From Sedimentibacter sp. (GTDB taxonomy: Bacteria > Bacillota > Clostridia > Tissierellales > Sedimentibacteraceae), in the NCBI GenBank assembly GCA_050173715.1, contig JBFXKO010000020.1:855-64854 (forward strand): 64,000 nt of DNA, in the 5' to 3' direction. Both the position numbers and the translations under genes were made by a program. The first letter of the stretch is position 1. The number at the start of each line of letters is the position of its first letter. Positions 647 through 41,832 of this stretch are shown here, one piece after another. The notes beneath the pieces are model-generated. The model made no database searches and was not told where the DNA came from. It saw only the letters and a program-made list of their open reading frames with translations.

Positions 647-680
647 TCTTTATAAGTTCTTCACAATCATATAGTAACAT
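647..680 (+). promoter_or_regulatory. Tandem direct-repeat activator site plus -10 box (site 1 of 5)
   Basis: TCTTTATAAGT/TCTTCACAATC (647-668, 11-bp period); TAACAT at 675-680. Confidence 0.7.
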
Positions 681-685
681 TTAAA

Positions 686-700
686 TACCCCGCGGGGGTG
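686..700. promoter_or_regulatory. CsoR-type operator
   Basis: TACCCCGCGGGGGTG, a C-tract/G-tract pseudo-palindrome typical of CsoR operators, just upstream of an HMA gene. Confidence 0.7.
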
Positions 701-720
701 CGGTATAAGGAGGTTTTAAA

Positions 721-957
721 ATGAATACTACTCAAACAATTAAATTAAAGCAAAGTAATATGTTATGCAATAGATGTTTAACGAATGTAGTCAAAGCTCT
801 CAGTCTCATAGAAGGGATTCAAGAATTAAATGTAAATCTTGATAAAAAGTTAATTAAGATTACTTATGATAATGACAAATTTACAAAAAAGGTAATTCAA
901 AAAATTATTAATGATTCAATCGTTCACGGAAAAGTGGACAGCAAAATATATTCATAA
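721..957 (+). CDS. Heavy-metal-associated (HMA) domain protein, CopZ-like
   Basis: MLCNRC CxxC motif, HMA-length protein, AGGAGG RBS. Confidence 0.85.
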   Translation: MNTTQTIKLKQSNMLCNRCLTNVVKALSLIEGIQELNVNLDKKLIKITYDNDKFTKKVIQKIINDSIVHGKVDSKIYS

Positions 958-982
958 AAATTTTTATTGAAAGGTGACAAAA

Positions 983-3649
983 ATGAAAATAGGCTTAGAT
1001 GTTGGTTCAACTACACTTAAATGCGTAGTTTTAGACGATGATGATAATTTAATATTTCACTCATATGAAAGACATTATTCTCAGATTAACCAAAAAACTG
1101 CTTTTTTACTAAAGCAAATAAAAGAAAGGTATCCAAAAGAAGAGTGTTTTGATTTAGCCATATCTGGCTCAGCAGGTATGGGGCTAGCAGGGAACTGTGG
1201 GATTCCATTTATTCAAGAAGTATATTCCACAAGAATAGCAGTAAAAAAAATACTTCCATATACAGATATAGTAATTGAACTAGGTGGCGAAGATGCTAAA
1301 ATTCTTTTTCTTCAAATAGTATGGAAGTTAGAATGAACGGTTCTTGTGCAGAAGGTACAGGTGCGTTTATAGACCAGATGGCTACACTTTTAAACGTAAG
1401 TTTAGATGAAATGAATGAGTTAGCAAAGAATTCTAACAAGATTTATACTATAGCCTCACGATGTGGAGTATTTGCAAAATCAGATGTGCAGCCTCTACTA
1501 AATCAAGGAGCAAATAAAAATGATATATCTGCTAGCATATTAGCAGCAGTTGTAAATCAAACAATTGCAGGATTAGCTCAAGGTAGAGAAATAGCAGGAC
1601 AAGTAGTATATCTTGGGGGACCTCTTACATTTTTATCAGAGTTAAGAAAAAGCTTCAATAATATATTGGGTGTCAAGGGCATCTGTCCCGAAAACTCATT
1701 ATACTATGTAGCACTGGGTGCAGCTTACACTGATTTGAGAGAGCCAATGAATATAAGTGAATTGATAGAAAAAATAGAAAATTACAAATCAGAGGCTGGA
1801 TATGCAAGTTCCATGACATTGTTTGAGAATGAGCCAAACTATAATGATTTTTTTGATAGACATTCTAGAGAAAAAGTAGAATATAGTAAACCTGAAAATT
1901 ATATAGGTGACGCATATTTAGGGATAGATGCAGGTTCAACAACGGTTAAGGCAACTGTAATAGATGAAAATGAAGACATACTATACTCTAAATATTTATC
2001 TAATAGTGGAAATCCAGTGCCAATAATAAAAGATTTTTTGATAGAATTTTATGATAATTATCCAAATATAAATATTAAATCATCTTCAGTAACCGGCTAT
2101 GGCGAAGATATAATTAAGAACGCATTTAGAGAAGGAAGGACTTCGCTAAGAATATTCATAGGATATTAGATGAGAACTTTGAAAATATTTCATTATCAGA
2201 GGTGAAAGTCGCCGTAGAAAAAGCTTTTGATGAATATGACTCATATATGAAGAAGGTTAGAGCTATGGGTAAAAACTATATGGACATAGCAGAATCAAAT
2301 AATATGAAGGTTATTGTTTTAGCTGGCAGACCATATCATATAGACCCTGAAATAAATCATGGTATAGCTGGTGGTTAATCTTGCATAATAATATTGTTGA
2401 ATTTACAAAAGATATGAAAGATGAGTATACCATCTTAGTTCCTAATATGTTGCCTATACATTTTTCCATGCTAAAAAGTGTCTTTCACGCTCATGGTTAT
2501 AATATGGTAGTTTTACAAAGTGAAGGACCTAATGTAGTCAATGAAGGATTAAAACTTGTGCATAATGACACATGCTATCCTGCTCTTTTAGTAATAGGAC
2601 AGTTAATAGATGCACTAAAGAGTGAAAATTATGATGTCAATAAAACAGCCCTTATGATAACTCAAACTGGTGGTGGATGTCGAGCTTCAAACTATATTTA
2701 TTTATTAAGAAAGGCATTAGTAAAGGCAGGATATGAAAATGTACCTGTAATTTCTTTAAATGCATCAAATGCATCGGGATTAGAAAAGAATAGTGGATTT
2801 AAATATACTATTCCAATGCTAAGACAGTCCTTAGCAGTAGTAGCATATGGTGATTTGCTTATGCTTTTAGATAATCAAACCAAACCTTATGAAGTCAATA
2901 GAGGGGAAAGTAAAGCCCTTGTTGCTAGTTGGACAGAAAAAATATCGGAGGAATTGAAGTACAATAAAGGATATAAATTTAATGAGTTGCAAGAAAATTT
3001 TAATAGAATATCAAAATCCTTTGCGGATATAAAAAAGGTAAATACACTAAAGGTTAAGGTTGGAATAGTTGGGGAAATCTATGTAAAATACTCTAGTCTA
3101 GGTAATAATAAACTAGAAGAATTTCTATATAATGAAAATTGCGAAATAATGGTGCCAGGATTATTAGGATTTATTATGTATTGTGTTGAAAATGATATTA
3201 TAGATACAGCGCTTTATGGTGGAGGATATATAAAAAGTAAAGTAAGAGCTAAATTGAATGAATATCTTGGTAAATTAGAAAGTGCTTTAATTAAATCCAT
3301 GAGTCAATATGAAGGCTTTGTAGCACCAACTGGCTTCAAGCATATAAAAACGCTTGGTGAGAAAGTAATTGGATTAGGGACTAAAATGGGTGAGGGCTGG
3401 CTATTACCAGCTGAAATAATGGAACTGATACAAATAGGGTATGAAAATATAATATGTACACAGCCATTTGGATGTTTGCCTAATCATATTATAGGAAAAG
3501 GGATAATTAGCAAGGTCAAGAGAATACATGAAAATGCAAATATTGTTTCTATTGATTATGACCCGGGAGCGACAAAAGTAAACCAAGAAAATAGAATAAA
3601 ATTGATGTTGTCCATAGCAAGAGAAAAACTTCAAACAAAAATAATGTAA
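983..3649 (+). pseudogene. Disrupted CoA-substrate-specific enzyme activase / 2-hydroxyacyl-CoA dehydratase-related fusion (YxcA-like)
   Basis: Two ASKHA motifs (GLDVGSTT, GIDAGSTT). Frameshift near 1310-1320. Out-of-frame middle fragment about 2130-2378 (VIVLAGRPYHIDPEINHG). C-terminal dehydratase-like domain 2381-3649 (HNDTCYPA, QTGGGCRASNY, QPFGCLPNH). Large parts of the usual protein are missing. Confidence 0.85.
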
Positions 3650-3717
3650 TAATTCTATCTCGAATTTTATATATAAAGTTATTATTGGGTGGTACAAGCA
3701 TAATATTCTTAACTGCT

Positions 3718-3751
3718 TCTCCATAAGTTCTTCAAATTGATTTGGTATTAT
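3718..3751 (+). promoter_or_regulatory. Tandem direct-repeat activator site plus -10 box (site 2 of 5)
   Basis: TCTCCATAAGT/TCTTCAAATTG (3718-3739); TATTAT at 3746-3751. Confidence 0.7.
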
Positions 3752-3812
3752 GATAATAAGACATGGACTTAAGCTTGTACGCTCTCTAATGAGACATAAG
3801 GTAGGTGATTTA

Positions 3813-4403
3813 ATGAGTTATAGGAAAATGAACGGATTTACAAGGTTGATTATTGTTGTAGCAGTTCTAGTATTTATATTGACTTTAATCATGAGTTTTA
3901 CATCTTTTCTTTCAGACAGCAATGAGAAAAAAGTATCCAATGAAAAAGTAGCCGAGGAAAATATATCTGTACAGCAAAATGAGGAAGAACCTGTTGAACA
4001 GTCCCAGTCAGATGGTTCTAATAATACAGTAAAATATATGACTATCAGCCAAAATGGGAATATCGATATTATCGTAAATTATTTATCCTCTTCGATAGGG
4101 GATAAAGATGTGCTAACATTTGAGGTTTCACTGGGAACACATTCTGTTAGCTTATCAAAGTACAAAGATATAAGGGAATATGTAGAGCTTGTAACAGATA
4201 CCGGAATTGTAGTAAGTGAGGGATTTGAGTGGGAATTGCAAAATGGAGAAGACCACCATACTAGCGGTATATTGAAAATAAAAAATGAAATTGATGGGAA
4301 ACCAATTGTCGGAGAAGATACAAAATCATTTAAACTGGTATTTAGGAATATTCCGGATAAAAGTGAAAGAGAGCACATATACGAAGGAGAAAAGCTTAAA
4401 TAA
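3813..4403 (+). CDS. Membrane-anchored exported protein with THSV and DHH His motifs (uncharacterised)
   Basis: ATG 3813 follows AGGTGA RBS (ORF track starts at 3750). N-terminal TM helix, acidic linker, LGTHSVSL and GEDHHTSGIL motifs. Confidence 0.8.
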   Translation: MSYRKMNGFTRLIIVVAVLVFILTLIMSFTSFLSDSNEKKVSNEKVAEENISVQQNEEEPVEQSQSDGSNNTVKYMTISQNGNIDIIVNYLSSSIGDKDVLTFEVSLGTHSVSLSKYKDIREYVELVTDTGIVVSEGFEWELQNGEDHHTSGILKIKNEIDGKPIVGEDTKSFKLVFRNIPDKSEREHIYEGEKLK

Positions 4404-4422
4404 TGAGCGAGAAAGATAAGGG

Positions 4423-5184
4423 GTGGGTTACATGTTTACATCCATTTATATTGTAGCATTTATTGCAGGATTAGTTTCTTTCCTGTCACCTTGTATAATA
4501 CCGATGATTACCGTGTATTTCAGTCTAATCACAGGCATGTCCGCAAAGGAACTTAAAGAGACCGGTAAAAGTAAAGCTATAAGGTTGAAGATAATAATAA
4601 ATACGCTTTTATTTATCTTGGCATTTACTATTGTTTTTACACTTGCTGGTGCTGCATCAGGAAAGGCTGCAAGTTTTATTAAAGAGAATATTGGTGTATT
4701 CAATGTTATTGGCGGTATTTTTGTTATTTTTCTCTCATTAAAACTTTTGGGCTTTTTTAAAACTGTTTCTTTCAGTATAAAAGCCCTGGATAATCTGTTT
4801 GACAGGTTTAAAGAGAGAGCTTCTACCAGATACCTTACCACTTTTTTAGTTGGAATATTCTTTGCCGTTGCTTGTTCACATTGTATTGGACCCTTATTAT
4901 ATTCAATGTTGATTTTTGCAGGAAGCATGGGTTCCTCCTATACTGGTATGGCAGTAATGTTCATGTTTTCAATAGGGCTAGGAGTGCCATATCTGTTGGT
5001 AGGGATAGCCTTTGGAAAGTCAATGGGTATATTGAAGAGAATTCAGAAATATCATACAGTGATATCATATGTGACAGGTGTAATTCTTCTTATTTTTGGG
5101 ATATTGTTGTTATTTAACAAATTCACATTAATGGTTGAACTACTATATAAATTCATTCCTTTCAGTTTACCTATAGGAATGTAG
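4423..5184 (+). CDS. ccdA: Cytochrome c biogenesis / disulfide-reducing membrane protein CcdA (DsbD transmembrane domain)
   Basis: FLSPCIIP and ACSHCIGP Cys motifs in a roughly 6-TM protein; likely ATG at 4432. Confidence 0.88.
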   Translation: MGYMFTSIYIVAFIAGLVSFLSPCIIPMITVYFSLITGMSAKELKETGKSKAIRLKIIINTLLFILAFTIVFTLAGAASGKAASFIKENIGVFNVIGGIFVIFLSLKLLGFFKTVSFSIKALDNLFDRFKERASTRYLTTFLVGIFFAVACSHCIGPLLYSMLIFAGSMGSSYTGMAVMFMFSIGLGVPYLLVGIAFGKSMGILKRIQKYHTVISYVTGVILLIFGILLLFNKFTLMVELLYKFIPFSLPIGM

Positions 5185-5436
5185 GAAATTATTGCTGACG
5201 CCAATGCAGTTAGGCTCTGCGGATATTCTGAAGGAATAGCTGATGCATTAGAAAAAAAATTAGTTTCAACAAATTTGTAGATGAGAAAAAAACCAGTGTT
5301 CAACAATTAATCGAATGCTGGTTTATTTTTTTAAATTTTTTATTATTGTAATTTTTCCAAAGGTTGAAGCAATATTAATTAAAAAGTTTAAGAAGAATGA
5401 TTTAAAATTTATAAAATAGTTAATAATATTTTTAAA

Positions 5437-5470
5437 TCTTCACAATTTCTACATAATCTTTTGTTAACAT
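5437..5470 (+). promoter_or_regulatory. Tandem direct-repeat activator site plus -10 box (site 3 of 5)
   Basis: TCTTCACAATT/TCTACATAATC (5437-5458); TAACAT at 5465-5470. Confidence 0.7.
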
Positions 5471-5486
5471 ACATATATAAAAGAAA

Positions 5487-5501
5487 CACCCCCCGGGGGT
5501 A
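5487..5501. promoter_or_regulatory. CsoR operator
   Basis: CACCCCCCGGGGGTA immediately upstream of csoR. Confidence 0.8.
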
Positions 5502-5522
5502 TGGTTAATGGAGTGGATTCTG

Positions 5523-5789
5523 ATGAACAAAGAGAAAGAAAATGCTGTTACTTCTTTAAAGACAGCAAAAGGGCAAATTGAAGGAATTATTAAAATGTTA
5601 GAGGATGATAGATATTGTGTTGATATATCAAATCAAATAATTGCAGCACAATCACTGTTAAAAAAGGCTAATATTTTAATTTTAAGGCAACACATTCATC
5701 ATTGTGTAAAAGAAGCAATAAAAGAAGAAACCGGTGATGAAAAGATAGACGAAATAATAAATATTTTAGAAAAAATAATACAAAAATAA
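5523..5789 (+). CDS. csoR: Copper-sensing repressor CsoR
   Basis: GQIEGIIKMLEDDRYCVDI and HIHHCV (C-H-C ligands); heads the copA operon. Confidence 0.92.
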   Translation: MNKEKENAVTSLKTAKGQIEGIIKMLEDDRYCVDISNQIIAAQSLLKKANILILRQHIHHCVKEAIKEETGDEKIDEIINILEKIIQK

Positions 5790-5804
5790 AAAGGAGTGGT
5801 TTTA

Positions 5805-5951
5805 ATGTTTAAATTTATTAAAAATTGGCTAGACAGATTAGCTAAAGAGAATCAAAAAACTTTTGGAACAGGTAGAATGGATTGCTGTGATTTAAATAAA
5901 CCAAAAAACACAAATACACAAGCTGCTACCAGTAATACAAATAAGAAATGA
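5805..5951 (+). CDS. LDCC-motif putative metal-binding small protein (48 aa); not in ORF track
   Basis: AAGGAG RBS. MFKFIKNWLDRLAKENQKTFGTGRMDCCDLNKPKNTNTQAATSNTNKK. Lies between csoR and copA, and its stop overlaps the copA RBS. Confidence 0.85.
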   Translation: MFKFIKNWLDRLAKENQKTFGTGRMDCCDLNKPKNTNTQAATSNTNKK

Positions 5952-5961
5952 GGTGTAATGA

Positions 5962-8418
5962 TTGGAAAAGAGTCTTAAAATAGAAGGAATGACCTGTGCA
6001 TCCTGCGCTAAGACAGTTGAAAAAGCTACTAAGAAAGTACAGGGTGTAACAGATGCAAATGTAAACTTTGCAACTGAAAAGTTAAATGTAACCTTTGATG
6101 ATTCAAAGGTTACTGTAAAGGATATACAAGCTGCTGTAGAAAAAGCAGGATACAAAGCTTTATCTGAAGCTGTAACAAAAACAATGAAAATACAGGGAAT
6201 GACATGTGCATCCTGTGCTGCAAATATAGAAAAAGCTACAAGAAAGCTTAATGGGGTAACTGAATCAAATGTAAATTTTGCTACAGAAAAGTTAACCATA
6301 AGTTATGAACCAACATTAGTGAAAGTTTCAGAAATAAAGAATGCAATTGAAAAAGCAGGGTATAAAGCAGTCGAAGAGGAAACTTCAGTAGATGCTGACA
6401 AGGAAAGAAAAGAAAAAGAGATAAAATCTTTATGGGGAAGATTTGTAATATCAGCAATTTTTACGACACCTCTGTTATACATGGCAATGGGTCATATGTT
6501 TGGAGAAATGCTTGGAATAAAATTACCTGAAGTTATAGATCCAATGATGAATCCATGGAACTTTGCAATAGTACAGTTGATTTTAGTTACACCACCTATG
6601 ATTGTAGGTTACAAATATTTTACCGTAGGTTTTAAATCGTTGTTTAGAGGAAGTCCAAATATGGATTCACTTATAGCAATAGGTACAGCTGCAGCTTTCT
6701 TATACGGAATTTATGCAATTGTACAGATTTATAACGGCAATGGTGATTATGCTAATGAATTGTATTTTGAAGCAGGAGGAGTAATATTAACCCTTATTAC
6801 ATTAGGGAAATATTTAGAATCAGTTACAAAAGGAAAAACATCTGAGGCAATAAAGAAATTAATGGGGCTTGCACCTAAGACAGCAATAATTATAAGAGAT
6901 GGCAAGGAAGTTGAAATTTCAATTGAAGATGTTGAAGTTGGAGATGTTATAGTAGTTAAACCTGGAGAAAAAATGCCGGTAGACGGAGAGGTTATAGAAG
7001 GAACAACTTCAGTAGATGAATCAATGCTTACAGGTGAAAGTATTCCAGTAGAAAAAAATATTGGTGACGGCATTATAGGTGCAAGTATAAATAAAAACGG
7101 AACAATAAAATATAAGGCTACAAAAGTCGGTAAGGATACAGCACTGGCACAAATTATAAAATTGGTTGAAGATGCTCAGGGTTCTAAAGCACCTATAGCA
7201 AAATTAGCCGATGTTATTTCAGGATATTTTGTTCCTGTGGTAATAGCTCTTTCAATAATATCAGCATTGGCATGGTACTTCTTAGGAGGGCAATCAACAG
7301 TATTTGCTTTAACAATATTTATATCAGTTCTTGTTATAGCCTGCCCATGCGCATTAGGATTGGCAACTCCGACAGCTATAATGGTTGGAACAGGAAAGGG
7401 AGCTGAAAACGGAGTATTGATTAAAAGCGGTGTTGCGTTAGAAACAACACATAAAATTAAAACAATCGTATTTGATAAAACCGGTACAATAACAGAAGGA
7501 AAACCAAAGGTAACAGATATAATAACTGCAAATGGAATACAAGAAAATGATTTGCTGCAATTAACAGCATCTGCTGAAAAGGGTTCAGAACATCCACTTG
7601 GTGAAGCAATAGTAAAAGGTGCTGAAGAAAAGGGACTAGAATTTAAAAACCTTGATGCATTCAATGCAATACCTGGTCATGGAATTGAAGTTAAAATTGA
7701 CGGCAAAAATATATTGGCAGGCAACAGAAAGCTTATGGTTGAACGCAACATTTCATTGGAAAACTTGGAATCAACATCTAACAAGCTTGCAGAAGAAGGT
7801 AAAACACCTATGTATGTTGCTATAGATAATAAGATAGCAGGTATAATAGCAGTAGCAGATACAGTTAAGGAAAACAGCAAAAGAGCTATTGAAAAATTGC
7901 ATCAAATGGGTATAGAAGTAGCAATGATTACAGGTGACAACAGAAGAACAGCAGAAGCTATAGCAAGACAAGTGGGAATAGACAGAACACTCGCAGAAGT
8001 ATTGCCGCAGGATAAAGCTAATGAAGTTAAGAAGCTTCAATCTGAAGGGAAAAAGGTTGCAATGGTTGGTGACGGTATAAATGATGCTCCTGCCTTGGCT
8101 CAAGCTGATATAGGTATAGCCATAGGTTCAGGAACAGACGTAGCAATGGAATCAGCTGATATAGTATTGATGAGAAGTGATTTGATGGATGTACCGACAG
8201 CCATACAGCTAAGTAAAAGCACAATAAGAAATATAAAACAAAATCTGTTTTGGGCTTTTGGTTATAACACATTAGGTATACCTGTAGCTATGGGAATCCT
8301 GTACCTCTTTGGAGGGCCACTGTTAAATCCAATGTTTGCAGCAGCAGCAATGAGTTTAAGTTCAGTATCAGTATTAGCAAATGCATTAAGATTAAAGAGA
8401 TTTAAGCCGGTTAGATAA
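5962..8418 (+). CDS. copA: Copper-translocating P1B-type ATPase
   Basis: Two GMTCASC HMA domains, TGES, CPC, DKTGT, SEHPL, GDGIND, YN and MxxSS motifs; TTG start. Confidence 0.97.
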
Positions 8419-8470
8419 TTAATAAAATAATTATTTAATATATAAAATACAAAATAATGGAGGATATGAA

Positions 8471-8686
8471 ATGAAAAAGAAAATATTAATTGAAGGAATG
8501 AGCTGTCAACATTGTGTAAATCACGTAACAGAAGCTTTAGGAGAAATTTGCGGAGTAAAATCTGTAAATGTAGATTTAGATAATAAGAACGCTGTAGTTG
8601 AACTGGCACATCCGGTAGACGATGCAAAGTTTAAGGAAGCTGTTGATGAAGCAGGTTATGAAGTTGTTGGAATAGAAGCATTATAA
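8471..8686 (+). CDS. copZ: Copper chaperone CopZ
   Basis: GMSCQHC motif, 71 aa, directly after copA. Confidence 0.92.
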   Translation: MKKKILIEGMSCQHCVNHVTEALGEICGVKSVNVDLDNKNAVVELAHPVDDAKFKEAVDEAGYEVVGIEAL

Positions 8687-8701
8687 TTTATATGTAATTA
8701 T

Positions 8702-8738
8702 AAAATGGCTTTGATAGTTAACTGTTGAAGCCATTTTT
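8702..8738 (+). terminator. Rho-independent terminator of the cop operon
   Basis: AAAATGGCTT...AAGCCATTTT stem followed by a T-tract. Confidence 0.7.
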
Positions 8739-8899
8739 TATGGAATTTTTTACTATAGTTTTAAAGATAATAACACAAATGTGGTTATTAAATTTGTTAA
8801 AAGGGTATATTAAATTATAATTATTTTTCTGAATAATAAGAAATTAAAGTTGTTAAGTTTTAATGATTTTACAGCTAACAGAAGTATAGGAGGAAACTT

Positions 8900-9169
8900 A
8901 TGAAATTAATTGACAATATATTTAGAAAAAAAGATGATACTATTATGTATACTTCAGATACTTGAGATGATTGTAAGGAAGCAAAAAGTTTTTTTGCAGA
9001 AAATCAAATAGAAGTTATATATAAAAATGTAGCAGATAAACAGAATAGGAATGAGCTTATGAAAAAATATGATCGTATGGTTGTCCCAACAATTATAATA
9101 GGAAATAAGATTCTTTTAGGATTTGCAGATAATAGAGATGAAATTATAAAACTTTTAAAACTAAGTTAA
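8900..9169 (+). CDS. Glutaredoxin/NrdH-like selenoprotein (UxxC), 89 aa; not in ORF track
   Basis: AGGAGG RBS, ATG 8900, in-frame TGA at 8963-8965 in YTSDT-U-DD-C-KEAKSFF. The frame continues through VVPTIIIGNKILLGF (Grx cis-Pro motif) to TAA at 9167-9169. Confidence 0.85.
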
Positions 9170-9185
9170 CTTAATATCAAACTGT

Positions 9186-9219
9186 ACTTCACAAGTTCTT
9201 CATAGTTATATAGTAAAAT
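9186..9219 (+). promoter_or_regulatory. Tandem direct-repeat activator site plus -10 box (site 4 of 5)
   Basis: ACTTCACAAGT/TCTTCATAGTT (9186-9207); TAAAAT at 9214-9219. Confidence 0.7.
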
Positions 9220-9266
9220 CTATATACATAAAGCTTTTAATTAAAAAGCATGATGGAGGAACTAAT

Positions 9267-9602
9267 ATGAATTGTCATGGAAATAACGATGGAAATAATA
9301 AAGAAAATTATAACGAAAATAAAGGGATGCACAATCATAGTCCGATAAAGCATATGCTTCATATGATTCTTTGCTGCGGATTGCCAATATTAATTTTTGC
9401 TGCACTACCGTTTATATCAAAGGTTAGTCCGGGAGCCAGCAGGATATTATTAGTGATTGCTCCATTTATATGTCCGTTAATGATGATAGGAATGATACCA
9501 ATGATGTTAGGCGGTGGAAAGAATAATAAAAAATCAAGCTACTGTGAAAACAAAGAAAGTATCTCCAAAGCACAACTTGAGTTAAATGAACCAACAGAAT
9601 AA
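9267..9602 (+). CDS. Small His/Cys/Met-rich two-TM membrane protein (DUF2933-like)
   Basis: HNHSPIKHMLHMILCCGLP and ICPLMMIGMIPMM motifs; GGAGG RBS. Confidence 0.75.
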   Translation: MNCHGNNDGNNKENYNENKGMHNHSPIKHMLHMILCCGLPILIFAALPFISKVSPGASRILLVIAPFICPLMMIGMIPMMLGGGKNNKKSSYCENKESISKAQLELNEPTE

Positions 9603-9687
9603 GTTGAATTTTGCAAAAAATGATAGCAATTTTATTATTGTTGCGACTATGGCGTGATGAGTAAAAAATTAACTAACATTTAATAAA

Positions 9688-9717
9688 AGATTAATGCCAA
9701 ACGGCATTAATTTTTGT
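9688..9717 (+). terminator. Rho-independent terminator
   Basis: ATTAATGCC-AAAC-GGCATTAAT followed by Ts. Confidence 0.7.
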
Positions 9718-9745
9718 TATTTAAAAAGAAAAAGGTGTTTTAATA

Positions 9746-12700
9746 ATGAAAAAATTTTTTAATAACAGATATAATGTTTTGTTTTTAATATTCGCTTTGC
9801 TTTTGATAATTTTAGGATATAGAATGGCTGTATTGACAATCGTTGAAGGGGCTAGCTACAGAGAAATTGCAGATGTTAAGAAAATTAAAGATATACCTGT
9901 CAAGGCTCCAAGAGGAAAAATATATGACAGAAACGGAGTTGTCTTAGCAGACAATGTACCAAGCTTCACGGTACAAATGTTTACTGACCAAATAAATGAA
10001 GAAGATTTTAATCAAATATCATATACTTTGTCTAAAATATTAGATATAAATGCGGAAAATTCTATAGATGAATTTCCTATACTTTTAGATTTATTAGAAT
10101 TTAAACAAAATATAAAGTTGGACAAGACAGCCAATGAAGAAGTTATTGATTCTGTAAAAGACAATATAAATGATTGGTTCAATTATGAAACGATAATTTA
10201 CGGTGAAAGGTTCAGTCCTAAAGAACTGGTATTAAAAACGATAAAAAAGGATATAAAAGATTTAAATATTGAACTTAAAGACGGACAATTTGTTTTTGCT
10301 GATGAGGATGAAGAACAGGAGGTATCAGGATTAACAGATGAAAGAAATAAGTTAAAAAATCAAAATCCTAAAGATATTATTATCGAGAAGCTATTGAACG
10401 AAAACAAATTCATACTGGAGCTTTTTTCTAATTCAAAAATCAGAAAATTTTCTTTTGAATTTTTAAAATCCATAGACCTTGCAGGCAATATCGAATTAGT
10501 TGAGTATTCATTCTCATATGATAATGAATTTAAAAACATAAAGAGGAATTTATCTCTGGCAAATGAAGAAATTACTGATGCAACAAATGCAAAGGATGAT
10601 TTTGTTGTCCTTACATTAAAAAATTCAATTGATAATTTATTGCTTGCTAATTATGAATCTAAAAATGAGAAAATAATACCTGGTAAAATACTTATTGAAA
10701 GATTAAAAGAAATTTATCCTGATTTTCCTGTTGAATATTATGAAAATGGACAAACAGTCTTATTTGAATTTACAGATGAAAAAACAAAGATGAAATATCT
10801 GAATCAATATAATTTTGACATTGAAATAAATGCATTAGATTTTATAAAAGAAATGGCAGCAAAAAATTATAATATTTTATATGACTTTATTACAAACGAC
10901 GAAATAAAATATTATGCCCAAGCAGAACTTTTAAAATATATAAATCCGCATATTTCAATAGATAATTGGGAATACACACCCATCAAAAACAAAAAAATAT
11001 GGATAAGCAAAAATATTGATTCAGAAGAAAATAACACTATCTATGCTGCAGAAGAATCATTTAATGCGTTAAGAGAGAAGTTGAAAGTAGATTTTAATAT
11101 TAACGACTATGACTTCCGAAACATGTTAGTTATTAGAGAAAGGTATAACAAAACAAGTTATCTTTCATATCATCCCGTAGATATAGCCTATGGAATTTCT
11201 GAAAAATCTGTCGCTATGATTTCAGAAAGATCACATGAATTAAATGGAATAAATGTTGAAATCGAACCGCTCCGAAGTTATCCTGAAAAAGAATCCGCAG
11301 CGCACATTTTAGGATATCTAGGCAAGATTTCACAGGAGAATGAAATAAAAGAATACATTGATGAGAATGGTTACAGCCCTGAAGACATCATAGGAAAAAC
11401 AGGAGTTGAAGAAAAGTTTGAACACTATTTAAGAGGAGAAAAAGGAAAGAAAACTGTTGAAGTTAATAATTTTGGAGAAACAATAAAGTCAGTTTCAAGT
11501 CAGGCGCCGGTACCAGGCGATGATTTGTATCTTACAATAGATATTAACTTACAAAAGAAGGCTGAGGAATCACTAAAAAAAGGTTTGGAACAGATACAAA
11601 ATGGCGGAGTCTTTGAAAGTGAATGGGGTAATTTCAATTTTGGAGACAGCTATGAAGATGCAACATCAGGCTCATTGGTTGCATTGGATGTAAAAACAGG
11701 AGAAGTTTTAGCAATGGCAAATTATCCATCATATGATTTAAACATGTTTTCAACGGGTATTTCTGCCGAAGATTGGAACAACCTCCAAAATGAATCAAGA
11801 AATCCTCTTGCTCCAAAATCTTTGTACAATATTGCAATGCTTACTTCTATTCAACCAGGCTCTACTTTTAAAATGGTAACAGCATTAGCAGCGCTTGAGA
11901 AAGGTGTTGACCCGCTTACTGAAATATATTGTCCAGGAACTATTAAAGTAGGAGATAGAAACTTTAACTGCTGGTCATATACTCTCTTTGGCTATGGACA
12001 TGGGTGGCAAAATATGTATGAAGCTATACAAAATTCATGCAATATATATTTTTTTGTAACTGTATTAGGAGTAAATCCGGCTACTGACCAAAAACACACA
12101 GTTCAAGTTGATGTAGATGATATAATTGAAACAGCTAAGATGTTAGGCTTAGATAGCAAAACAGGAATTGAAATAGATATTCCACAGGAATCTTCAGGAG
12201 GAGTTCCAAGTATAGATGGTAAAAAATCAAGTATAAGAGTGTATTTAAGAATATTTTTGGAAGGTAATTTGGAAAAATATTTATATAATGGTTCTAATTT
12301 AGGTGAAGACATGAAAAATGAAATAATAGAAGAAATAGTAAGCTGGATTGACAGAGAAGAACCATTGACCAGGGGAGAAGTATACGAAAACTTAAAATTG
12401 CTGGGAGTAAATCCGGATATAACAAATAACAATAATGTACCTTTGGTTGATATTATTAAATATTCTTTCATAAACCAGGCACACTGGACGGCTGGGGACA
12501 ATTTAAATATTGCTATCGGTCAGGGTTCTAATTCCTACACAGCTCTTCAAATGTCTAATTATGCTTCTATAATTGCTAATGGTGGCTACAAAAGAAATGT
12601 TAGTGTTATAAAAGAAATTAAAACATTTGATGGACAAAAAACGGATTATATTCCATTACGAGAATCTGAAAGAATTGAGCTTTCTGATTACAATCATTTG

Positions 12701-13003
12701 GAAATATTAAAGGAAGGCATGAGAAGAGTTTCATCGGAAGACAGTGGAAGACCATATGCTAATTTTCCGGTTGAAGTTGGAAGCAAGACAGGTACAGCAC
12801 AAAAGGAAGGGATAAATCCTGAAACAGGTGAACCTTATGATGAATTTGCCTGGTATGTTGCATTTGCTCCTTATGATGATCCTCAAATAGCAGTAGCAAT
12901 AGTTTTATTTCAAGGTGGTTCAGGAAGATATCCTACCCCTATTGCCAGAGAGGTAATTGGCGAATATTTGAAGATAAAAGGCATTGTTCAAACGAATAAT
13001 TAA
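9746..13003 (+). CDS. Large class B penicillin-binding protein (PBP2/MrdA-like transpeptidase with insertions)
   Basis: N-terminal TM helix, APRGKIYDRNG, SxxK (GSTFK), SxN (SCN) and KTG motifs; 1085 aa. Confidence 0.92.
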   Translation: MKKFFNNRYNVLFLIFALLLIILGYRMAVLTIVEGASYREIADVKKIKDIPVKAPRGKIYDRNGVVLADNVPSFTVQMFTDQINEEDFNQISYTLSKILDINAENSIDEFPILLDLLEFKQNIKLDKTANEEVIDSVKDNINDWFNYETIIYGERFSPKELVLKTIKKDIKDLNIELKDGQFVFADEDEEQEVSGLTDERNKLKNQNPKDIIIEKLLNENKFILELFSNSKIRKFSFEFLKSIDLAGNIELVEYSFSYDNEFKNIKRNLSLANEEITDATNAKDDFVVLTLKNSIDNLLLANYESKNEKIIPGKILIERLKEIYPDFPVEYYENGQTVLFEFTDEKTKMKYLNQYNFDIEINALDFIKEMAAKNYNILYDFITNDEIKYYAQAELLKYINPHISIDNWEYTPIKNKKIWISKNIDSEENNTIYAAEESFNALREKLKVDFNINDYDFRNMLVIRERYNKTSYLSYHPVDIAYGISEKSVAMISERSHELNGINVEIEPLRSYPEKESAAHILGYLGKISQENEIKEYIDENGYSPEDIIGKTGVEEKFEHYLRGEKGKKTVEVNNFGETIKSVSSQAPVPGDDLYLTIDINLQKKAEESLKKGLEQIQNGGVFESEWGNFNFGDSYEDATSGSLVALDVKTGEVLAMANYPSYDLNMFSTGISAEDWNNLQNESRNPLAPKSLYNIAMLTSIQPGSTFKMVTALAALEKGVDPLTEIYCPGTIKVGDRNFNCWSYTLFGYGHGWQNMYEAIQNSCNIYFFVTVLGVNPATDQKHTVQVDVDDIIETAKMLGLDSKTGIEIDIPQESSGGVPSIDGKKSSIRVYLRIFLEGNLEKYLYNGSNLGEDMKNEIIEEIVSWIDREEPLTRGEVYENLKLLGVNPDITNNNNVPLVDIIKYSFINQAHWTAGDNLNIAIGQGSNSYTALQMSNYASIIANGGYKRNVSVIKEIKTFDGQKTDYIPLRESERIELSDYNHLEILKEGMRRVSSEDSGRPYANFPVEVGSKTGTAQKEGINPETGEPYDEFAWYVAFAPYDDPQIAVAIVLFQGGSGRYPTPIAREVIGEYLKIKGIVQTNN

Positions 13004-13010
13004 TTTTATA

Positions 13011-13053
13011 TAAAAACGCCTATGTAATTTTTAAAATCACATAGGCGTTTTTT
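13011..13053. terminator. Bidirectional terminator between convergent genes
   Basis: AAAAACGCCTATGT...ACATAGGCGTTTTT. Confidence 0.8.
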
Positions 13054-14401
13054 ATTGTATTGTTATTGTACTGCTTATCATACCCATCCAGCATGTGTAA
13101 GTTATAGTTCCGGCTTGTGTTGGAGTAAATTCAATTGTATTTTCTCCAAGTTCAAGTTTTTGCTGAATTCCATATTGGGGTATTATAATTTCATTGTTGC
13201 AACCGTTCAATGTGCCTTTATCAGCTATTATTGTCCATTTCAAAGGGGCTCCGGCATATACGGTAATTGGCTGGTATTTGCCTGGCTCAAGTTTTGTTGT
13301 TACTGTCTGGTTGCCGTCATTAATAACAGCATTTACAGACTTTCCACTTTGGTTTAAATCTATTCCCAGAGGAGATAAAATGGCATTTGCTATATTAATT
13401 CCTGCCAATGAAAAACCTCTGTTTCCCATGATAATACCTAATATGATAACTAACATAGCACTTATTTTCATCATTTGTTTAGTAAACTTAGAACTCAGTA
13501 TTGAACTGAAAGCGCCAAAAGCAAACATCATAGGCACAGTTCCTATGCTAAAAATTAACATTGATAATGCGCCTGTAAAAAAGCTTCCTGTTCCAAGAGC
13601 ATAAAGCTGCATTGCCTGTAATGGACCACAAGGCATAAATCCATTAAGCAAACCTACAATAAATGGTCCATTATTATTTTTCTTATTGTCAATTTTATTA
13701 GTTAAACTTTTAGGAAGACGTGGCATTATTTTTCTCAATTTAGCGGATAAGCCTAACATGTTAATACCCATGATGATCATGAATAACCCTGCTATAAATG
13801 AAATCAATGCTTTACCTTTCAGTGAAATACTAAAAATTGAACCAAGAGCACCAACCAATCCTCCTAAAATTGTGTAAGATGTCACTCTCCCAAGGTTATA
13901 TAAAAAACTTGGTTTAAGCTTACTGTATATATTGTTTTCACATCCGTTGCATCCCGAACATTGAGATAAATTTATTCCGCCGCACATAGCTATACAGTGA
14001 ACTGATGTAAAAAGTCCTGCTACGAAAAGCATGCCATAACCCATACTCTGTGTTATTTGCGGGAAAAAGTTAAAACCAACAGTATTATTAATGATTACAT
14101 ACAGACCGACGATAATGAGACCAATTAACAAAGTAGTGGTGATAGATGATTCTTCTTCTATATTATCATCATCGAGTATAACATCATAACCTTTTTTCTT
14201 GATAGTTTCGTAAATAATGTTTATATCAATTTCTTCTGGTATATATGTTATTTCTGCTGTAGATGAAGCATAGCTTACATTTATCTTTAAAACTCCATCC
14301 AATTTGTTTATTGCTTTCTCAATCTTATTTTCACAAGCTGTGCAGGTAACCCCATCTAATTTAATAATTTTTTGTTCAGTTAACTTCTGCATTTTTACCA
14401 A
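13052..14401 (-). CDS. HMA + DsbD_2/TauE-like membrane domain + cupredoxin-like domain protein
   Basis: GVTCTAC HMA motif, TSVHCIAMCGG, FMPCGPLQ, C-terminal LNGCNN...YTCWMGM; likely ATG at 14392. Confidence 0.85.
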   Translation of the reverse strand: MVKMQKLTEQKIIKLDGVTCTACENKIEKAINKLDGVLKINVSYASSTAEITYIPEEIDINIIYETIKKKGYDVILDDDNIEEESSITTTLLIGLIIVGLYVIINNTVGFNFFPQITQSMGYGMLFVAGLFTSVHCIAMCGGINLSQCSGCNGCENNIYSKLKPSFLYNLGRVTSYTILGGLVGALGSIFSISLKGKALISFIAGLFMIIMGINMLGLSAKLRKIMPRLPKSLTNKIDNKKNNNGPFIVGLLNGFMPCGPLQAMQLYALGTGSFFTGALSMLIFSIGTVPMMFAFGAFSSILSSKFTKQMMKISAMLVIILGIIMGNRGFSLAGINIANAILSPLGIDLNQSGKSVNAVINDGNQTVTTKLEPGKYQPITVYAGAPLKWTIIADKGTLNGCNNEIIIPQYGIQQKLELGENTIEFTPTQAGTITYTCWMGMISSTITIQ

Positions 14402-14944
14402 CTAGTTTTTCCAATTTGCAAATATACCTTCAGCTTCAACAAGTAAATCCTTAGGAATTGTAATTGTTGAGTCAGTTTCTGTTTTCATTTCTTTAAATAT
14501 TGGAACAGGGTTACATCCGCCTCTTGCTACTTCAACTTCATCCATTTTAAATCTGTTCCCACAGTTTTGACATACCAACACATCACCTTCCTGTACGTAA
14601 TATCCTCTTCCTGAAGAATAACATACTTGACAAGTATTAAATGCTGTTCTTACTGTTCCATCTGATGCCTTGACAGCTAAAATTTCCATGTATGTGTCAA
14701 GTTCATCATAAGCATAGAATGTGGCAGTATCGGTTACATCAGCCTTAGGAATAACCATATCTCCTTTTTCGTCAGTTACTGATGTTGCTGTTGGCTTTGG
14801 TTGCTCTGTTAAGTTTTCATCTTCATTTTTAGAATTTAAAAAAGTAAATGCTGCTATGCCTATTACTATAACTGCTACAACTCCAAGAATTACATTAGAG
14901 TTTTTCTTTGATGATTTACCTTTGCCTTTTTTACTATTCTTCAT
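14402..14944 (-). CDS. DUF2318 family Cys-rich (putative Fe-S/metal-binding) membrane-anchored protein
   Basis: TM anchor; TCQVC, VCQNCGNRF and GGCNPVP motifs. Confidence 0.85.
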   Translation of the reverse strand: MKNSKKGKGKSSKKNSNVILGVVAVIVIGIAAFTFLNSKNEDENLTEQPKPTATSVTDEKGDMVIPKADVTDTATFYAYDELDTYMEILAVKASDGTVRTAFNTCQVCYSSGRGYYVQEGDVLVCQNCGNRFKMDEVEVARGGCNPVPIFKEMKTETDSTITIPKDLLVEAEGIFANWKN

Positions 14945-14979
14945 ATTATTATCCTTTCAATAAATTAAACTTAGAAATT

Positions 14980-15013
14980 ATCATAATAAAACTTTATGAA
15001 GATTTAATGGAGA
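14980..15013 (-). promoter_or_regulatory. Tandem direct-repeat activator site plus -10 box (site 5 of 5)
   Basis: Minus strand TCTCCATTAAA/TCTTCATAAAG (15013-14992); TATGAT at 14985-14980. Confidence 0.7.
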
Positions 15014-15142
15014 TTTAATAAAAATATCGAATTTCAAAGCATTGAATATTCAAGATTGTAGAAAATTGTAGAAAAATAGTGATAGCATTTTGTCATTGTG
15101 ACCATAAGATATACCATAAATTAATTATCAGGAGGACTTACA

Positions 15143-16069
15143 ATGCAATATAGAAACAATTTTGTTCAACAATCATTAGAGTTGCATCTATTTTTTTCAA
15201 GAATTATGAAGGAACACTCTTTTTTTCTACAAATAGCATTTACGCCCAGAGATTTGAATTATTCTCAAAAAGCTGATGAATTCAGAAGGGAATATGATAA
15301 GGTTTTGGATGAAGTTATTTTTCTTTCCAATGGCAATGTAGGGCAAAGCGTGCTTCAATCTGGTGAAGTTTTTACTCCTTACACGATACCAGCTGAAATG
15401 GCATCTTCTTATTTTACAGGGGTTAGGATTCCAAGTGAACTGACACAAAGAGAAGCACAATTGATGGGGAGCAATAATATTACTGTCAATTCACAATTAG
15501 AAGAAAGAGTTTATCAGATAAATCAGAGGGTTATAGAATTAACTCAAGCATTAATACAATTTAAAACTAATATTTTGAATAATGTATTATCTTGCAACAT
15601 GTTTACAGTTAATTATCCATTATTAATAGATCACATAATGCGAGAAGCAAAGCTTTACGTACAAACAATACAAAGAATCCAAAGCAGAGAATATATTGAT
15701 GTTGAAAGAGAAGCTTTAGAGCAAGAAATGTTTTGGAACAGAATAATGGCAGAGCATTCAAAATTTATACGTGGTTTCCTTGACCCATCCGAGGTTGAAT
15801 TATTTGATGCAGCTAATAATTTTGGTAAAGAGTTTGATCAATTAACTTTAGATGCAAAAGCTGCAATGGATATGACAATACCTGTGGCTAAGGTTACAAA
15901 TGATAGCCTGAAAGCTACTCAAGCAATAAGAGATTTTAAAACCCAAGGAACCCAAGGAATACTTGAATGCAAAATAAAATCAATTATTATACCTTTATTG
16001 GGTGATCATACAATTCGTGAAGCAAGTCACTACTTAAGACTTTTAAATATTTTTAAAAATTATAATTAA
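15143..16069 (+). CDS. DUF2935 domain protein
   Basis: Duplicated FFSRIMKEHS / FWNRIMAEHS motifs and DHIMREA / DHTIREA. Confidence 0.85.
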   Translation: MQYRNNFVQQSLELHLFFSRIMKEHSFFLQIAFTPRDLNYSQKADEFRREYDKVLDEVIFLSNGNVGQSVLQSGEVFTPYTIPAEMASSYFTGVRIPSELTQREAQLMGSNNITVNSQLEERVYQINQRVIELTQALIQFKTNILNNVLSCNMFTVNYPLLIDHIMREAKLYVQTIQRIQSREYIDVEREALEQEMFWNRIMAEHSKFIRGFLDPSEVELFDAANNFGKEFDQLTLDAKAAMDMTIPVAKVTNDSLKATQAIRDFKTQGTQGILECKIKSIIIPLLGDHTIREASHYLRLLNIFKNYN

Positions 16070-17377: not shown

Positions 17378-17848
17378 TTGTCTAACAACTTAAGTGATAT
17401 AATTGAAGGTTTTATTAAAGAATTGCTTGAAGCAAATAACTTCAAGGCTGTGGAAATACAAAGAAATATTCTTGCTCAGCAATTTGACTGCTCTCCATCT
17501 CAAATAAATTATGTGCTTACAACCCGATTTAACAATGACAGAGGCTACATAGTTGAAAGCAGACGCGGAGGTGGCGGTTATATAAGAATTTTCAAAGTAC
17601 ATTCAGCCACTGAGGGTGAGCTTGAGAGAATACTGAATGATAGCATAGGAGATAGCATAACTTTAAATAGGGCATTTGATTTGTTGCATGCTCTGTCTGA
17701 AAGAGGTGTAATTTCCTTAAGGGATTTAAAGATTATGCAAAGTGTTTTAAGTGACAGAGCCTTAAATAATGTTTCTTATGAAGACAGAAACAAACTGCGG
17801 GCGGATTTGTTAAAGGAAATGATTTTATCATCTATAGAAGATGATTAA
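17378..17848 (+). CDS. ctsR: Class III heat-shock repressor CtsR
   Basis: PSQINYVLTTRF and VESRRGGGGYIRI motifs. Confidence 0.95.
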   Translation: MSNNLSDIIEGFIKELLEANNFKAVEIQRNILAQQFDCSPSQINYVLTTRFNNDRGYIVESRRGGGGYIRIFKVHSATEGELERILNDSIGDSITLNRAFDLLHALSERGVISLRDLKIMQSVLSDRALNNVSYEDRNKLRADLLKEMILSSIEDD

Positions 17849-17871
17849 TATAGTACTAGGAGGGTATAAAA

Positions 17872-18360: not shown

Positions 18361-18372
18361 GCAGGTGATATC

Positions 18373-19365: not shown

Positions 19366-19390
19366 ATAAGTTTATAATATTAAAAAGGAG

Positions 19391-41153: not shown

Positions 41154-41175
41154 AATTAAAAAGGTGGAGGCAGAT

Positions 41176-41823: not shown

Positions 41824-41832
41824 GAGAGAATA

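Follow-up and report, generated by a model that had tools for sequence, protein, structure and literature searches.

A probable copper-stress island of a Sedimentibacter-like anaerobe with two probable sensors and a putative envelope metal relay

Introduction

To our knowledge, little has been described of how strictly anaerobic Gram-positive bacteria deal with copper beyond the CsoR-CopA-CopZ system, in which the repressor CsoR derepresses on Cu(I), and CopZ and HMA proteins hand Cu(I) to the ATPase CopA for export. Here we describe a 64,000-nucleotide stretch of DNA from Sedimentibacter sp. (contig JBFXKO010000020.1, hereafter the window), in which such an operon lies among accessory genes for proteins with metal or redox motifs. 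Like the csoR-copA-copZ operon of Bacillus subtilis and Listeria monocytogenes, it encodes in canonical order CsoR, a P1B ATPase of CPC type whose N terminus carries HMA domains, and CopZ, and csoR has a pseudo-palindromic, GC-rich operator; the window adds an LDCC-family gene that parts csoR from copA, a separate HMA gene with a second CsoR operator before it, and a tandem box upstream of the CsoR-controlled promoters. An earlier reading of this region (the original prediction) had gathered eight accessory proteins around the core into a trans-envelope system that moves both copper and reducing equivalents. Open reading frame (ORF) listing and Pfam and NCBIfam scans confirm all eight accessory ORFs and the canonical core.

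Several described systems resemble parts of this arrangement. The site TGAAGATTTnnTGAAGATTT of CopR, a copper-responsive regulator of Corynebacterium glutamicum, was defined by electrophoretic mobility shift assay and mutagenesis (PMC3140484). The tandem box of the window shares the 11-bp periodicity of the CopRS site and corresponds to its reverse complement, and in relatives the module has OmpR-type regulators and kinases as neighbours; however, C. glutamicum belongs to another phylum and has a single site, whereas five sites precede five units here, and the comparison with CopR is one of sites. Clusters of the merR-copA-cupredoxin-DUF2933-ICMT type, in which the copA-cupredoxin-DUF2933-ICMT genes are known from Gammaproteobacteria (Alteromonas and others; PMC8478169), likewise place an exported β-sandwich, a DUF2933-type membrane protein and an ICMT-like methyltransferase by copA, and two of the loci fetched for comparison (numbered L001 onwards), L003 and L004, string together ICMT, an exported protein here called THSV and a DUF2933-like protein. 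In contrast to those clusters, the β-sandwich here is the Pfam-less THSV, CcdA is added, the window has no ICMT gene, and CsoR and a CopR-like box take the place of MerR. The predicted CsoR meta-regulon of gut Firmicutes includes COG2836 (HMA-DsbD_2 with or without DUF2318) and DUF2318, the latter reported both as a stand-alone protein and fused to HMA-DsbD_2, both predicted to be CsoR-regulated (PMC4938975). The same two families occur in the window, adjacent here but fused there, behind a promoter that carries the CopR-like box and lacks a CsoR palindrome, and the HMA-DsbD_2 fusion ends in a cupredoxin-like domain.

Two further comparisons concern mechanism. Like the copper-induced Scs system (ScsB/ScsC/ScsD) and its DsbD/CcdA relatives, thiol reductases that shield the envelope against copper (PMC10907172), the locus encodes a DsbD-superfamily membrane protein together with genes predicted to respond to copper; unlike Scs, it lacks a thioredoxin-fold partner, its neighbouring exported protein is free of Cys, and HMA fusions suggest metal transfer. 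With MerP/MerT it would share the logic of a soluble metal-binding domain that serves a Cys pair in a small membrane protein and, through it, a site across the membrane. There is no sequence homology with MerP/MerT beyond generic HMA similarity, the HMA domain lies in the cytoplasm and not in the periplasm, and the outer domain is a His-based β-sandwich.

The csoR-copA-copZ core is already known, and earlier work has linked LDCC, DUF2933, DUF2318 and HMA-DsbD_2 to copA or CsoR (PMC8478169, PMC4938975). The new elements are a single predicted CopR-like box that unites five units including the cop operon, two families for which no model exists (THSV and its CCxHH partner), the THSV-CcdA pairing, and a predicted selenocysteine (Sec) redoxin at the locus. 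Gene content, motifs, shared cis-elements and recurrence across lineages are direct observations. With confidence a little better than even, we read the region as a copper-stress island of a Sedimentibacter-like anaerobe under two probable sensors, whose accessory modules form a metal relay. Such a locus suggests a second, envelope-directed copper layer with its own sensor, and would assign a role to orphan families that lie near copA in many phyla (LDCC, DUF2933, DUF2318/FtrD-like and HMA-DsbD_2). These families are named but uncharacterised, and the original prediction, too, held most accessory members to be uncharacterised. If CcdA and DsbD_2 do relay metal, ‘cytochrome c biogenesis' annotations would have to be reread in organisms without cytochromes c.

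Results

Two predicted regulatory elements shared by the copper genes

Predicted CsoR-type operators lie at two places, ATACCCCGCGGGGGTGCGGTAT at 684–705 (+), between the tandem box and the ribosome-binding site of the HMA gene, and ACACCCCCCGGGGGTATGGT at 5485–5504 (+), directly before csoR. Allowing at most one mismatch, the CsoR-type palindrome gives five overlapping matches at three sites in the 64-kb window, against 0.36 expected, and perfect palindromes occur only at 687–699 and 5488–5500. The third site (55662) is mismatched and lies beside the gene for tRNA-Leu, the one tRNA of the window.

The second element is a tandem box of two hexamers, TCTYCA-N5-TCTTCA, with an 11-bp spacing that is typical of sites for OmpR/PhoB-type response regulators. 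At one mismatch or fewer it has six matches in 64 kb against 1.5 expected, and no shuffle reached six. Five of the six are intergenic, oriented towards the downstream gene and end 52–79 nt before its start codon; the matches stand at 647 (HMA gene), 3718 (THSV-ccdA), 5437 (csoR operon), 9186 (gene of a 111-residue membrane protein with HMxxCC motif) and, on the minus strand, 15013–14997 (FtrD-like operon). The boxes themselves read AAATCTTTATAAGTTCTTCA (644–663, +), TCTCCATAAGTTCTTCA (3718–3734, +), a variant AAATCTTCACAATTTCTACA (5434–5453, +) whose position upstream of csoR is conserved in L005, ACTTCACAAGTTCTTCA (9186–9202, +) and AAATCTCCATTAAATCTTCA (14997–15016, −). The sixth match, at 21744, was rejected, as it lies antisense inside clpC. 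An exact 10-mer, AAGTTCTTCA, is found three times in 64 kb, always intergenic, on the plus strand and upstream of the HMA, THSV and 111-residue protein genes. The region singled out by the original prediction runs from 647 to 15013, and these are exactly the outermost positions of the first and the last tandem box.

Read on the opposite strand, the box matches the CopR site of C. glutamicum with one to three mismatches, three in the box of the HMA gene and one, relative to the published motif, in that of the FtrD-like operon. At up to three mismatches the published CopR motif has four matches against 0.51 expected, and three of them are the sites of the HMA gene, csoR and the FtrD-like operon; a three-mismatch match at 43742, antisense inside a PhoR-like gene, is probably due to chance. 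Neither box nor CsoR operator is found upstream of the genes for the Sec-redoxin and the penicillin-binding protein (PBP) that lie within the region. These predicted sites suggest that the accessory units, with six metal-binding genes of poorly known function, and the cop operon probably constitute one copper-defence regulon, for which the common box offers an easy experimental handle.

The box is also found in related loci. ICMT-THSV-CcdA has it upstream in L001, L004, L007 and L008; L001 has it also before the HMA gene, L004 before HMA-DsbD_2 and L008 before a PBP2-like gene. It further precedes csoR in L005, a YHS gene and NlpC/P60 genes in L003 and L004, and homologues of the 111-residue protein in three Clostridium species, C. 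bovifaecis, C. intestinale and C. cochlearium. A gene-neighbourhood check had been proposed with the original prediction. Accessory genes recur with copA, csoR and HMA genes, in rearranged order and in other lineages; in Sedimentibacter, Clostridium and metagenomic loci the genes are found in shuffled order together with the box and with an OmpR-type two-component system next to them.

These comparisons bear on one alternative, namely that there is no functional module and that the region reflects local synteny of metal-motif genes in one clade, the AT-rich box being an ordinary promoter feature. The close THSV family is indeed narrow (25 proteins, mostly Sedimentibacter-like), unrelated genes (an activase pseudogene and PBP2) interrupt the region, and a generic sigma-70 promoter scan shows no enrichment (83 matches against 86 expected). 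However, the box occurs four to eight times more often than expected and only in these upstream regions, with a single, intragenic match in the remaining 49 kb, and it is kept before HMxxCC homologues in another class, Clostridium. The same families recur although gene order is shuffled between loci, and Rosetta-stone fusions join HMA to the CCxHH protein and HMA-DsbD_2 to DUF2318 or cupredoxin. We consider the absence of a module very improbable.

A candidate regulator encoded outside the window

The only two-component system of the window (41.8–44.2 kb) was rejected as regulator of the box: it follows PhoU and is PhoPR-like, and its response regulator is only 35–46% identical to those linked to the module elsewhere. 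Because no other two-component system is encoded in the window, the presumed regulator of the box would be encoded elsewhere in the genome. Orthologous response regulators and kinases of OmpR type adjoin the module in L001, L003 and L004. The module-linked response regulators are orthologous, with 84% and 59% identity, and the kinases are alike over their full length (62%; 32–35% for the Clostridium one). In L012, too, a response regulator and a kinase adjoin the module, and orthology is stated there for the kinase.

The cop operon and cytoplasmic copper proteins

The first gene of the island (721–957, +) encodes a stand-alone, metallochaperone-like HMA protein of 78 residues (Pfam HMA, 2e-8) with the motif M-L-C-N-R-C, in which CNRC is the CxxC. 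Its orthologue in L001 is 83% identical, and that in L003 (58%) is placed between csoR and copA. The cop operon itself begins with csoR (5508–5789, +; Trns_repr_metal, PF02583, 94.3 bits), the product of which contains the CsoR ligand set of Cys and His-x3-Cys (RYC...H-I-H-H-C). There follows a 51-residue peptide (5796–5951, +) that matches NF040898, ‘LDCC motif putative metal-binding protein', with 62.9 bits (1.7e-17) against a cut-off of 30 bits; the LDCC assignment of the original prediction thus passes the curated threshold, the copy in the window reading MDCC. Homologues of this peptide adjoin HMxxCC, ICMT and Lgt genes in L004 and L015. CopA (5962–8418, +) is a P1B-type Cu ATPase with two N-terminal HMA domains, CPC, DKTGT and HP motifs, and all P1B-1 hallmarks in its translation (GMTCASC twice, ACPCALG and FDKTGT). 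The operon core ends with the copper chaperone CopZ (8471–8686, +), which carries MSCQHC.

Envelope proteins of the accessory units

The second box precedes the gene pair THSV-ccdA. The THSV/DHH protein (3750/3813–4403, +) has no Pfam match, and an exact-sequence look-up of the 217-residue ORF gave no match; homologues start at the Met at 3813, the real start being 21 codons downstream. It consists of an N-terminal membrane anchor, a disordered linker and a β-sandwich (residues ~70–196), which is confidently modelled by AlphaFold with 17 homologues (predicted local distance difference test, pLDDT, >90). The protein contains no Cys at all, and H110, H148 and H149 are invariant in the family. 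Close homologues number 25 among 5.8 billion proteins, whereas a profile search of 1.84 billion representatives extends the family to at least 362 clusters. No Pfam domain covers the region in any of the 83 members scanned, and fusions to YncE-type propellers occur in a few. Foldseek returned weak matches only, mostly to immunoglobulin domains; the best non-immunoglobulin match, second overall, is the small periplasmic copper protein CrdA of Helicobacter pylori (E 6e-3), and SOD1 matches weakly. As a result of this weakness, THSV is not assigned to a fold family. A PDB profile search with the family found no solved homologue, its FliL and pilin matches being spurious and limited to the membrane anchor. 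DsbD N-terminal domains were not among the Foldseek matches, so that a reading of THSV as a detached nDsbD was abandoned.

CcdA (4423–5184, +; DsbD_TM family, 79.3 bits, 3e-22) starts 19 nt after the THSV gene. The order THSV then CcdA is immediate in seven loci of the close family (L001, L002, L003, L004, L007, L008 and L009), and CcdA also adjoins THSV next to CopA in L014, L088 and L091, although THSV identity falls there to only 28–35%. The hallmarks of an electron transporter are present in CcdA, with six hydrophobic segments and Cys in the first (SPC) and fourth (CSHC). An ICMT/PEMT-like methyltransferase usually precedes THSV in relatives.

Downstream of the Sec-redoxin, the gene at 9267–9602 (+) encodes the DUF2933-like HMxxCC/CPxMM membrane protein, 111 residues in length and rich in His, Cys and Met. 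Its invariant residues are H24, H29, H32, C36, C37, C69, P70, M73, M76, M79 and M80. The AlphaFold model shows a two-helix hairpin and, with an overall pLDDT of 59, was used for topology alone. The protein has no Pfam match, and its homologues match PF11666 weakly (in L003, and in L077 with 20.8 bits against a cut-off of 21); UniRef labels several of them DUF2933. More than 312 proteins make up this family, which is widely distributed in Clostridia. The homologues of C. intestinale and C. cochlearium are divergent beside an HMA-DsbD_2 fusion, near copA-copZ and NusG_II, and the C. intestinale locus additionally has csoR upstream, a gene for the lipoprotein transacylase Lit, and the two-component system.

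On the minus strand, the last unit encodes an HMA-DsbD_2-cupredoxin-like fusion (13052–14401) and, abutting it, an FtrD-like/DUF2318 protein (PF10080; 14402–14944; 1e-26, 93.4 bits against 26.3), which is membrane-anchored and Cys-rich. The fusion has the COG2836-type layout of an N-terminal HMA domain (2e-15, 57.5 bits) followed by a DsbD_2 membrane domain (2e-52, 178.5 bits). Its C-terminal domain scores 20.3 bits for Cupredoxin_1 (PF13473) against a cut-off of 27, and aligns locally with a bona fide Cupredoxin_1 protein (E 1e-5) along the stretch G-x-T-x-x-F-T-P...G-T-x-T-x-x-C. Hydropathy suggests seven membrane segments (six strong ones and the MPCGP helix), which would leave HMA inside and the cupredoxin-like domain outside. 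As regards the FtrABCD iron-uptake system, no FTR1-type permease or P19 domain was found among the ORFs of 1–18 kb.

Gene order in related loci

Among the close relatives, L003 has the order csoR-HMA78-copA-copZ-YHS-ParA...ICMT-THSV-DUF2933-like-CcdA, and L004 the order LDCC-HMxxCC-ICMT-THSV-CcdA-response regulator-kinase...HMA-DsbD_2. L001 additionally carries the HMA gene, NusG_II, a gene for the copper-storage protein Csp and the same two-component system. L012 and L094 share copA-copZ...NusG_II-HMA-DsbD_2-HMxxCC; csoR comes first in L012, and L094 begins inside copA.

Three side observations concern these loci. Genes for Csp-type four-helix copper storage proteins lie within a few kb of THSV in L001 (15294–15722), L005 (8118–8465) and L013 (9841–10200), and there is none in the window. 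A Pfam-less protein of about 770 residues stands beside copZ or THSV in L003 (6813–9125), L094 (1450–3750) and L015 (5–2164); its gene has a CopR-like box upstream in L003, and no homologue is found in the window. Envelope-biogenesis genes also recur nearby, several of them preceded by the box: Lgt, Lit, ICMT-like methyltransferase, NlpC/P60, YkuD and NusG_II (L003, L004, L012, L015, L088 and 10 of the 80 remote loci described below). A lipoprotein transacylase is described as copper-induced in Listeria in work cited by a later paper (Armbruster et al. 2019, cited in PMC8275575). The recurrence of Lgt, Lit, ICMT, NlpC/P60, YkuD and PBP genes suggests that, when copper is in excess, the regulon would protect envelope biogenesis or remodel it.

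The predicted Sec-redoxin and the possibility of an electron relay

The gene directly after copZ (8900–9169, +) encodes a glutaredoxin-like predicted selenoprotein with the motif T-U-D-D-C, the in-frame TGA lying at 8963–8965. A hairpin resembling a selenocysteine insertion sequence (SECIS), GCAAAAA-GUU-UUUUUGC, follows at 8981–8997 (+). In L013 a homologue with 44% identity has TGA at the same codon, and in both genes the SECIS-like hairpin stands 15 nt downstream with a GUU loop; the stems, GCAAAAA/UUUUUGC in the window and GCAAAGA/UCUUUGC in L013, differ by one compensatory change from A-U to G-C. These features make the UxxC redoxin a credible selenoprotein. With U replaced by C, it scores 60.3 bits against the YruB family TIGR02196 (cut-off 88.55), and it also scores below the cut-off of the Uxx-star model (NF041212); a word-based homologue search with the same replacement gave no match. 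Like the Grx-like or ‘Uxx-star' glutaredoxin-like selenoproteins of Clostridia (NF041212 and TIGR02196), it combines a small thioredoxin fold, Sec as the first residue of the redox motif and a SECIS-like hairpin. It differs from Uxx-star in that UxxC is followed by a full-length domain instead of a stop after Uxx, and it stays below both trusted cut-offs.

The redoxin is the natural starting point for a thiol-redox relay, in which the Sec-glutaredoxin would reduce CcdA or DsbD_2 and these in turn exported proteins, so that envelope thiols are kept reduced or Cu(II) is reduced, as in a Gram-positive analogue of ScsB/ScsC or DsbD/DsbC. CcdA, with its six canonical segments and two membrane-embedded Cys motifs, would suit this role, and so would the position of the redoxin gene after copZ and of its homologue beside ICMT in L013. 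DsbD-like, CcdA, TlpA-like or CcmH-like neighbours are found in 26 of 80 remote THSV loci, and DsbD-family reductases protect against copper in the Scs system (PMC10907172). However, THSV, which is co-transcribed with CcdA, has no Cys and is therefore not a thiol substrate of CcdA, and no exported thioredoxin-fold acceptor of the ResA, StoA, Etrx or ScsC type is encoded within 1–16 kb. N-terminal HMA domains fused to DsbD_2 and CCxHH proteins argue for metal transfer. In addition, CcdA is normally reduced by thioredoxin and not by glutaredoxin-like proteins.

The tie of the redoxin to the copper module is itself weak, because the gene shares neither regulatory element with the other units and, among all other fetched loci, a homologue lies near the module only in L013, beside ICMT. 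The step from redoxin to CcdA that the original prediction envisaged is thus not supported, and the same holds for the exported His/Cys acceptor, since the exported protein next to CcdA is Cys-free and HMA fusions to Cys-bearing membrane partners point to a metal hand-off. What is supported of that prediction is the link of these genes to copper, through shared predicted sites and co-occurrence; its specific electron path lacks the features that it would need. We regard an electron relay as unlikely. A metal relay in the manner of MerP/MerT fits the accessory design better, because THSV has no Cys, there is no thioredoxin-fold acceptor, and HMA domains bind metal and not electrons.

Remote THSV genes and their partners

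The context of remote THSV genes was analysed in 80 metagenomic loci with a GC content of 32–65% by unbiased clustering of the neighbours. In 39 of the 80 a small membrane protein with the motif CCxH[HY] is encoded directly upstream on the same strand (L017, L019, L050 (7327–7818), L078 and 35 further metagenome loci). These CCxHH proteins are about 165–200 residues long, share the motif A-M-V-A-C-C-x-H-H-V-x-D-V-L-P and have no Pfam model; several copies are fused to an N-terminal HMA domain. A metal-type gene lies within 4 kb of THSV in 52 of the 80 loci. Thirty-two loci span 5 kb or more, and 11 of these carry a P-type ATPase. Other neighbours are Rieske (12 loci), DsbD-like (11), Cupredoxin_1 (11), CcmH with DUF1573 (11), Lgt (10), PCYCGC (9), CcdA (8), DUF2933 (8), YHS (7), ICMT (6), YkuD (6) and TlpA-like proteins (6). 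With metal genes recurring in such loci, THSV is tied to thiophilic-metal genes far beyond the Sedimentibacter clade.

The gene immediately downstream of THSV in 12 of the 80 loci is that of a Rieske [2Fe-2S] protein with a twin-arginine translocation signal, at a median gap of 44 bp (for example, L051 325–840). This adjacency hints at a maturation role in those remote lineages and leads to a third alternative, that THSV and its membrane partner serve copper acquisition or cofactor maturation, delivering copper to an extracytoplasmic metalloprotein or assembling it, like PCuAC, Sco or TlpA, with proximity to cop genes reflecting general copper handling. The company of Rieske, CcmH with DUF1573, PCYCGC and TlpA-like genes would agree with it, as would the weak fold match to CrdA. 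Against it, the box of THSV-CcdA is the same as that of the efflux operon and of the CsoR-controlled HMA gene, in the window and in close relatives; the 64-kb window contains no cuproenzyme or cytochrome gene, in line with the original prediction that no cuproenzyme is evident in it; and in low-GC loci the commonest identifiable neighbours of THSV are CopA, CsoR, YHS and Csp. For the locus described here, acquisition or maturation appears quite unlikely.

Taken together with the local evidence, the remote loci allow a wider proposal, which we put forward only tentatively. The THSV family may be an undescribed extracytoplasmic copper-binding domain and an obligate partner of a Cys-bearing membrane protein, either the four-helix CCxHH protein, in some cases HMA-fused, or a recruited CcdA. 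The pair would form a widespread trans-membrane copper relay, from Chloroflexota to Clostridia, in which a member of the CcdA/DsbD family carries metal and not electrons, and which would here form part of a surface-copper regulon run by a CopR-like regulator.

Discussion

A copper-defence model with two sensors

In the model that we favour, two sensors probably control at least five transcription units. CsoR senses cytoplasmic Cu(I) and would act at its operators before the HMA gene and csoR-LDCC-copA-copZ, and a CopR-like response regulator of the OmpR family, probably sensing cell-surface copper via its kinase, would act at the tandem box. The HMA gene and the cop operon would thereby come under dual control, and the envelope units under CopR-like control only. 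In the cytoplasm, CopZ, the HMA protein and the LDCC peptide would bind Cu(I), which CopA exports by the known mechanism of the core. The accessory modules, which would act on the outer side of the membrane, appear to be built alike: a polytopic membrane protein that bears Cys is joined to, or paired with, a metal-binding domain outside the cytoplasm. The membrane part would be CcdA or DsbD_2 or, in distant relatives, the CCxHH protein, and relatives often carry a cytoplasmic HMA domain on its other side; the outer part would be the tri-His THSV β-sandwich, a cupredoxin-like domain or a Cys-rich FtrD-like protein. Such modules could capture surface copper and pass it through the membrane or along it, with the outer domain at one end of the route and the cytoplasmic chaperones at the other, so that copper would be kept off the exposed thiols of the envelope. 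Reducing power may additionally come from CcdA. Copper induction, the direction of transfer, and metal rather than electrons as cargo are what we infer from the arrangement of genes and sites.

Several observations weigh against this model. The box is short and AT-rich, its match to an actinobacterial CopR site could be coincidence, a cognate two-component system is not found within the 64-kb window, and some of the box-bearing related loci are orthologous and hence not independent. CcdA keeps all hallmarks of an electron transporter. Metal binding by THSV is deduced from three invariant His and the weak fold match to CrdA, and the frequent adjacency of remote THSV genes to Rieske, CcmH-like and TlpA-like genes hints at cofactor maturation over defence. 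For some DUF2933-like genes there is no cop gene in the vicinity (L011 and L095; C. bovifaecis and Desnuesiella). Finally, in the closest relative, L005 (THSV 88% identical), no CcdA adjoins THSV, the genes nearby being Csp and csoR-LDCC-copA. L005 (JBFXJF010000027.1) is labelled as a metagenome-assembled genome of Vulcanibacillus; its proteins are 88–96% identical to those of the window and, given that the other relatives are Sedimentibacter, the bin label may be wrong.

Transcription units and neighbouring genes

The span 647–15013 is divided into at least seven transcription units rather than one cluster-wide operon, because hairpin terminators stand 3′ of ccdA, copZ, the 111-residue protein gene (9267–9602) and the PBP gene. 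An Rfam scan of 1–17 kb gave no match. Two interrupters within the span were absent from the original prediction, a CoA-activase pseudogene (974–3649, +) and a PBP2-like gene (9746–13003, +). The former is a remnant of a CoA-substrate activase of the BcrAD/BadFG type, frameshifted and partly deleted, that comprises four consecutive ORFs in different frames (974–1336, 1321–2169, 2202–2378 and 2381–3649, all +) and has lost much of the second ATPase and HGD-D part. It begins 17 nt past the HMA gene, at the place where relatives carry the ICMT/PEMT methyltransferase. The PBP2-like transpeptidase is unusually long (1085 residues) owing to a large N-terminal insert. PBP2-like genes adjoin THSV in two further loci, L008 (3481–5981) and L013 (6235–7446), and the L008 gene has a CopR-like box upstream whereas the copy in the window has none.

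Beyond the island, a DUF2935 protein (15143–16069, +) diverges from the FtrD-like operon, and the box in their common intergenic region points towards the FtrD-like gene only. The cluster ctsR-mcsA-mcsB-clpC (17378–21844) lies just downstream, and a PhoU-PhoP-PhoR cluster follows further on (41137–44246).

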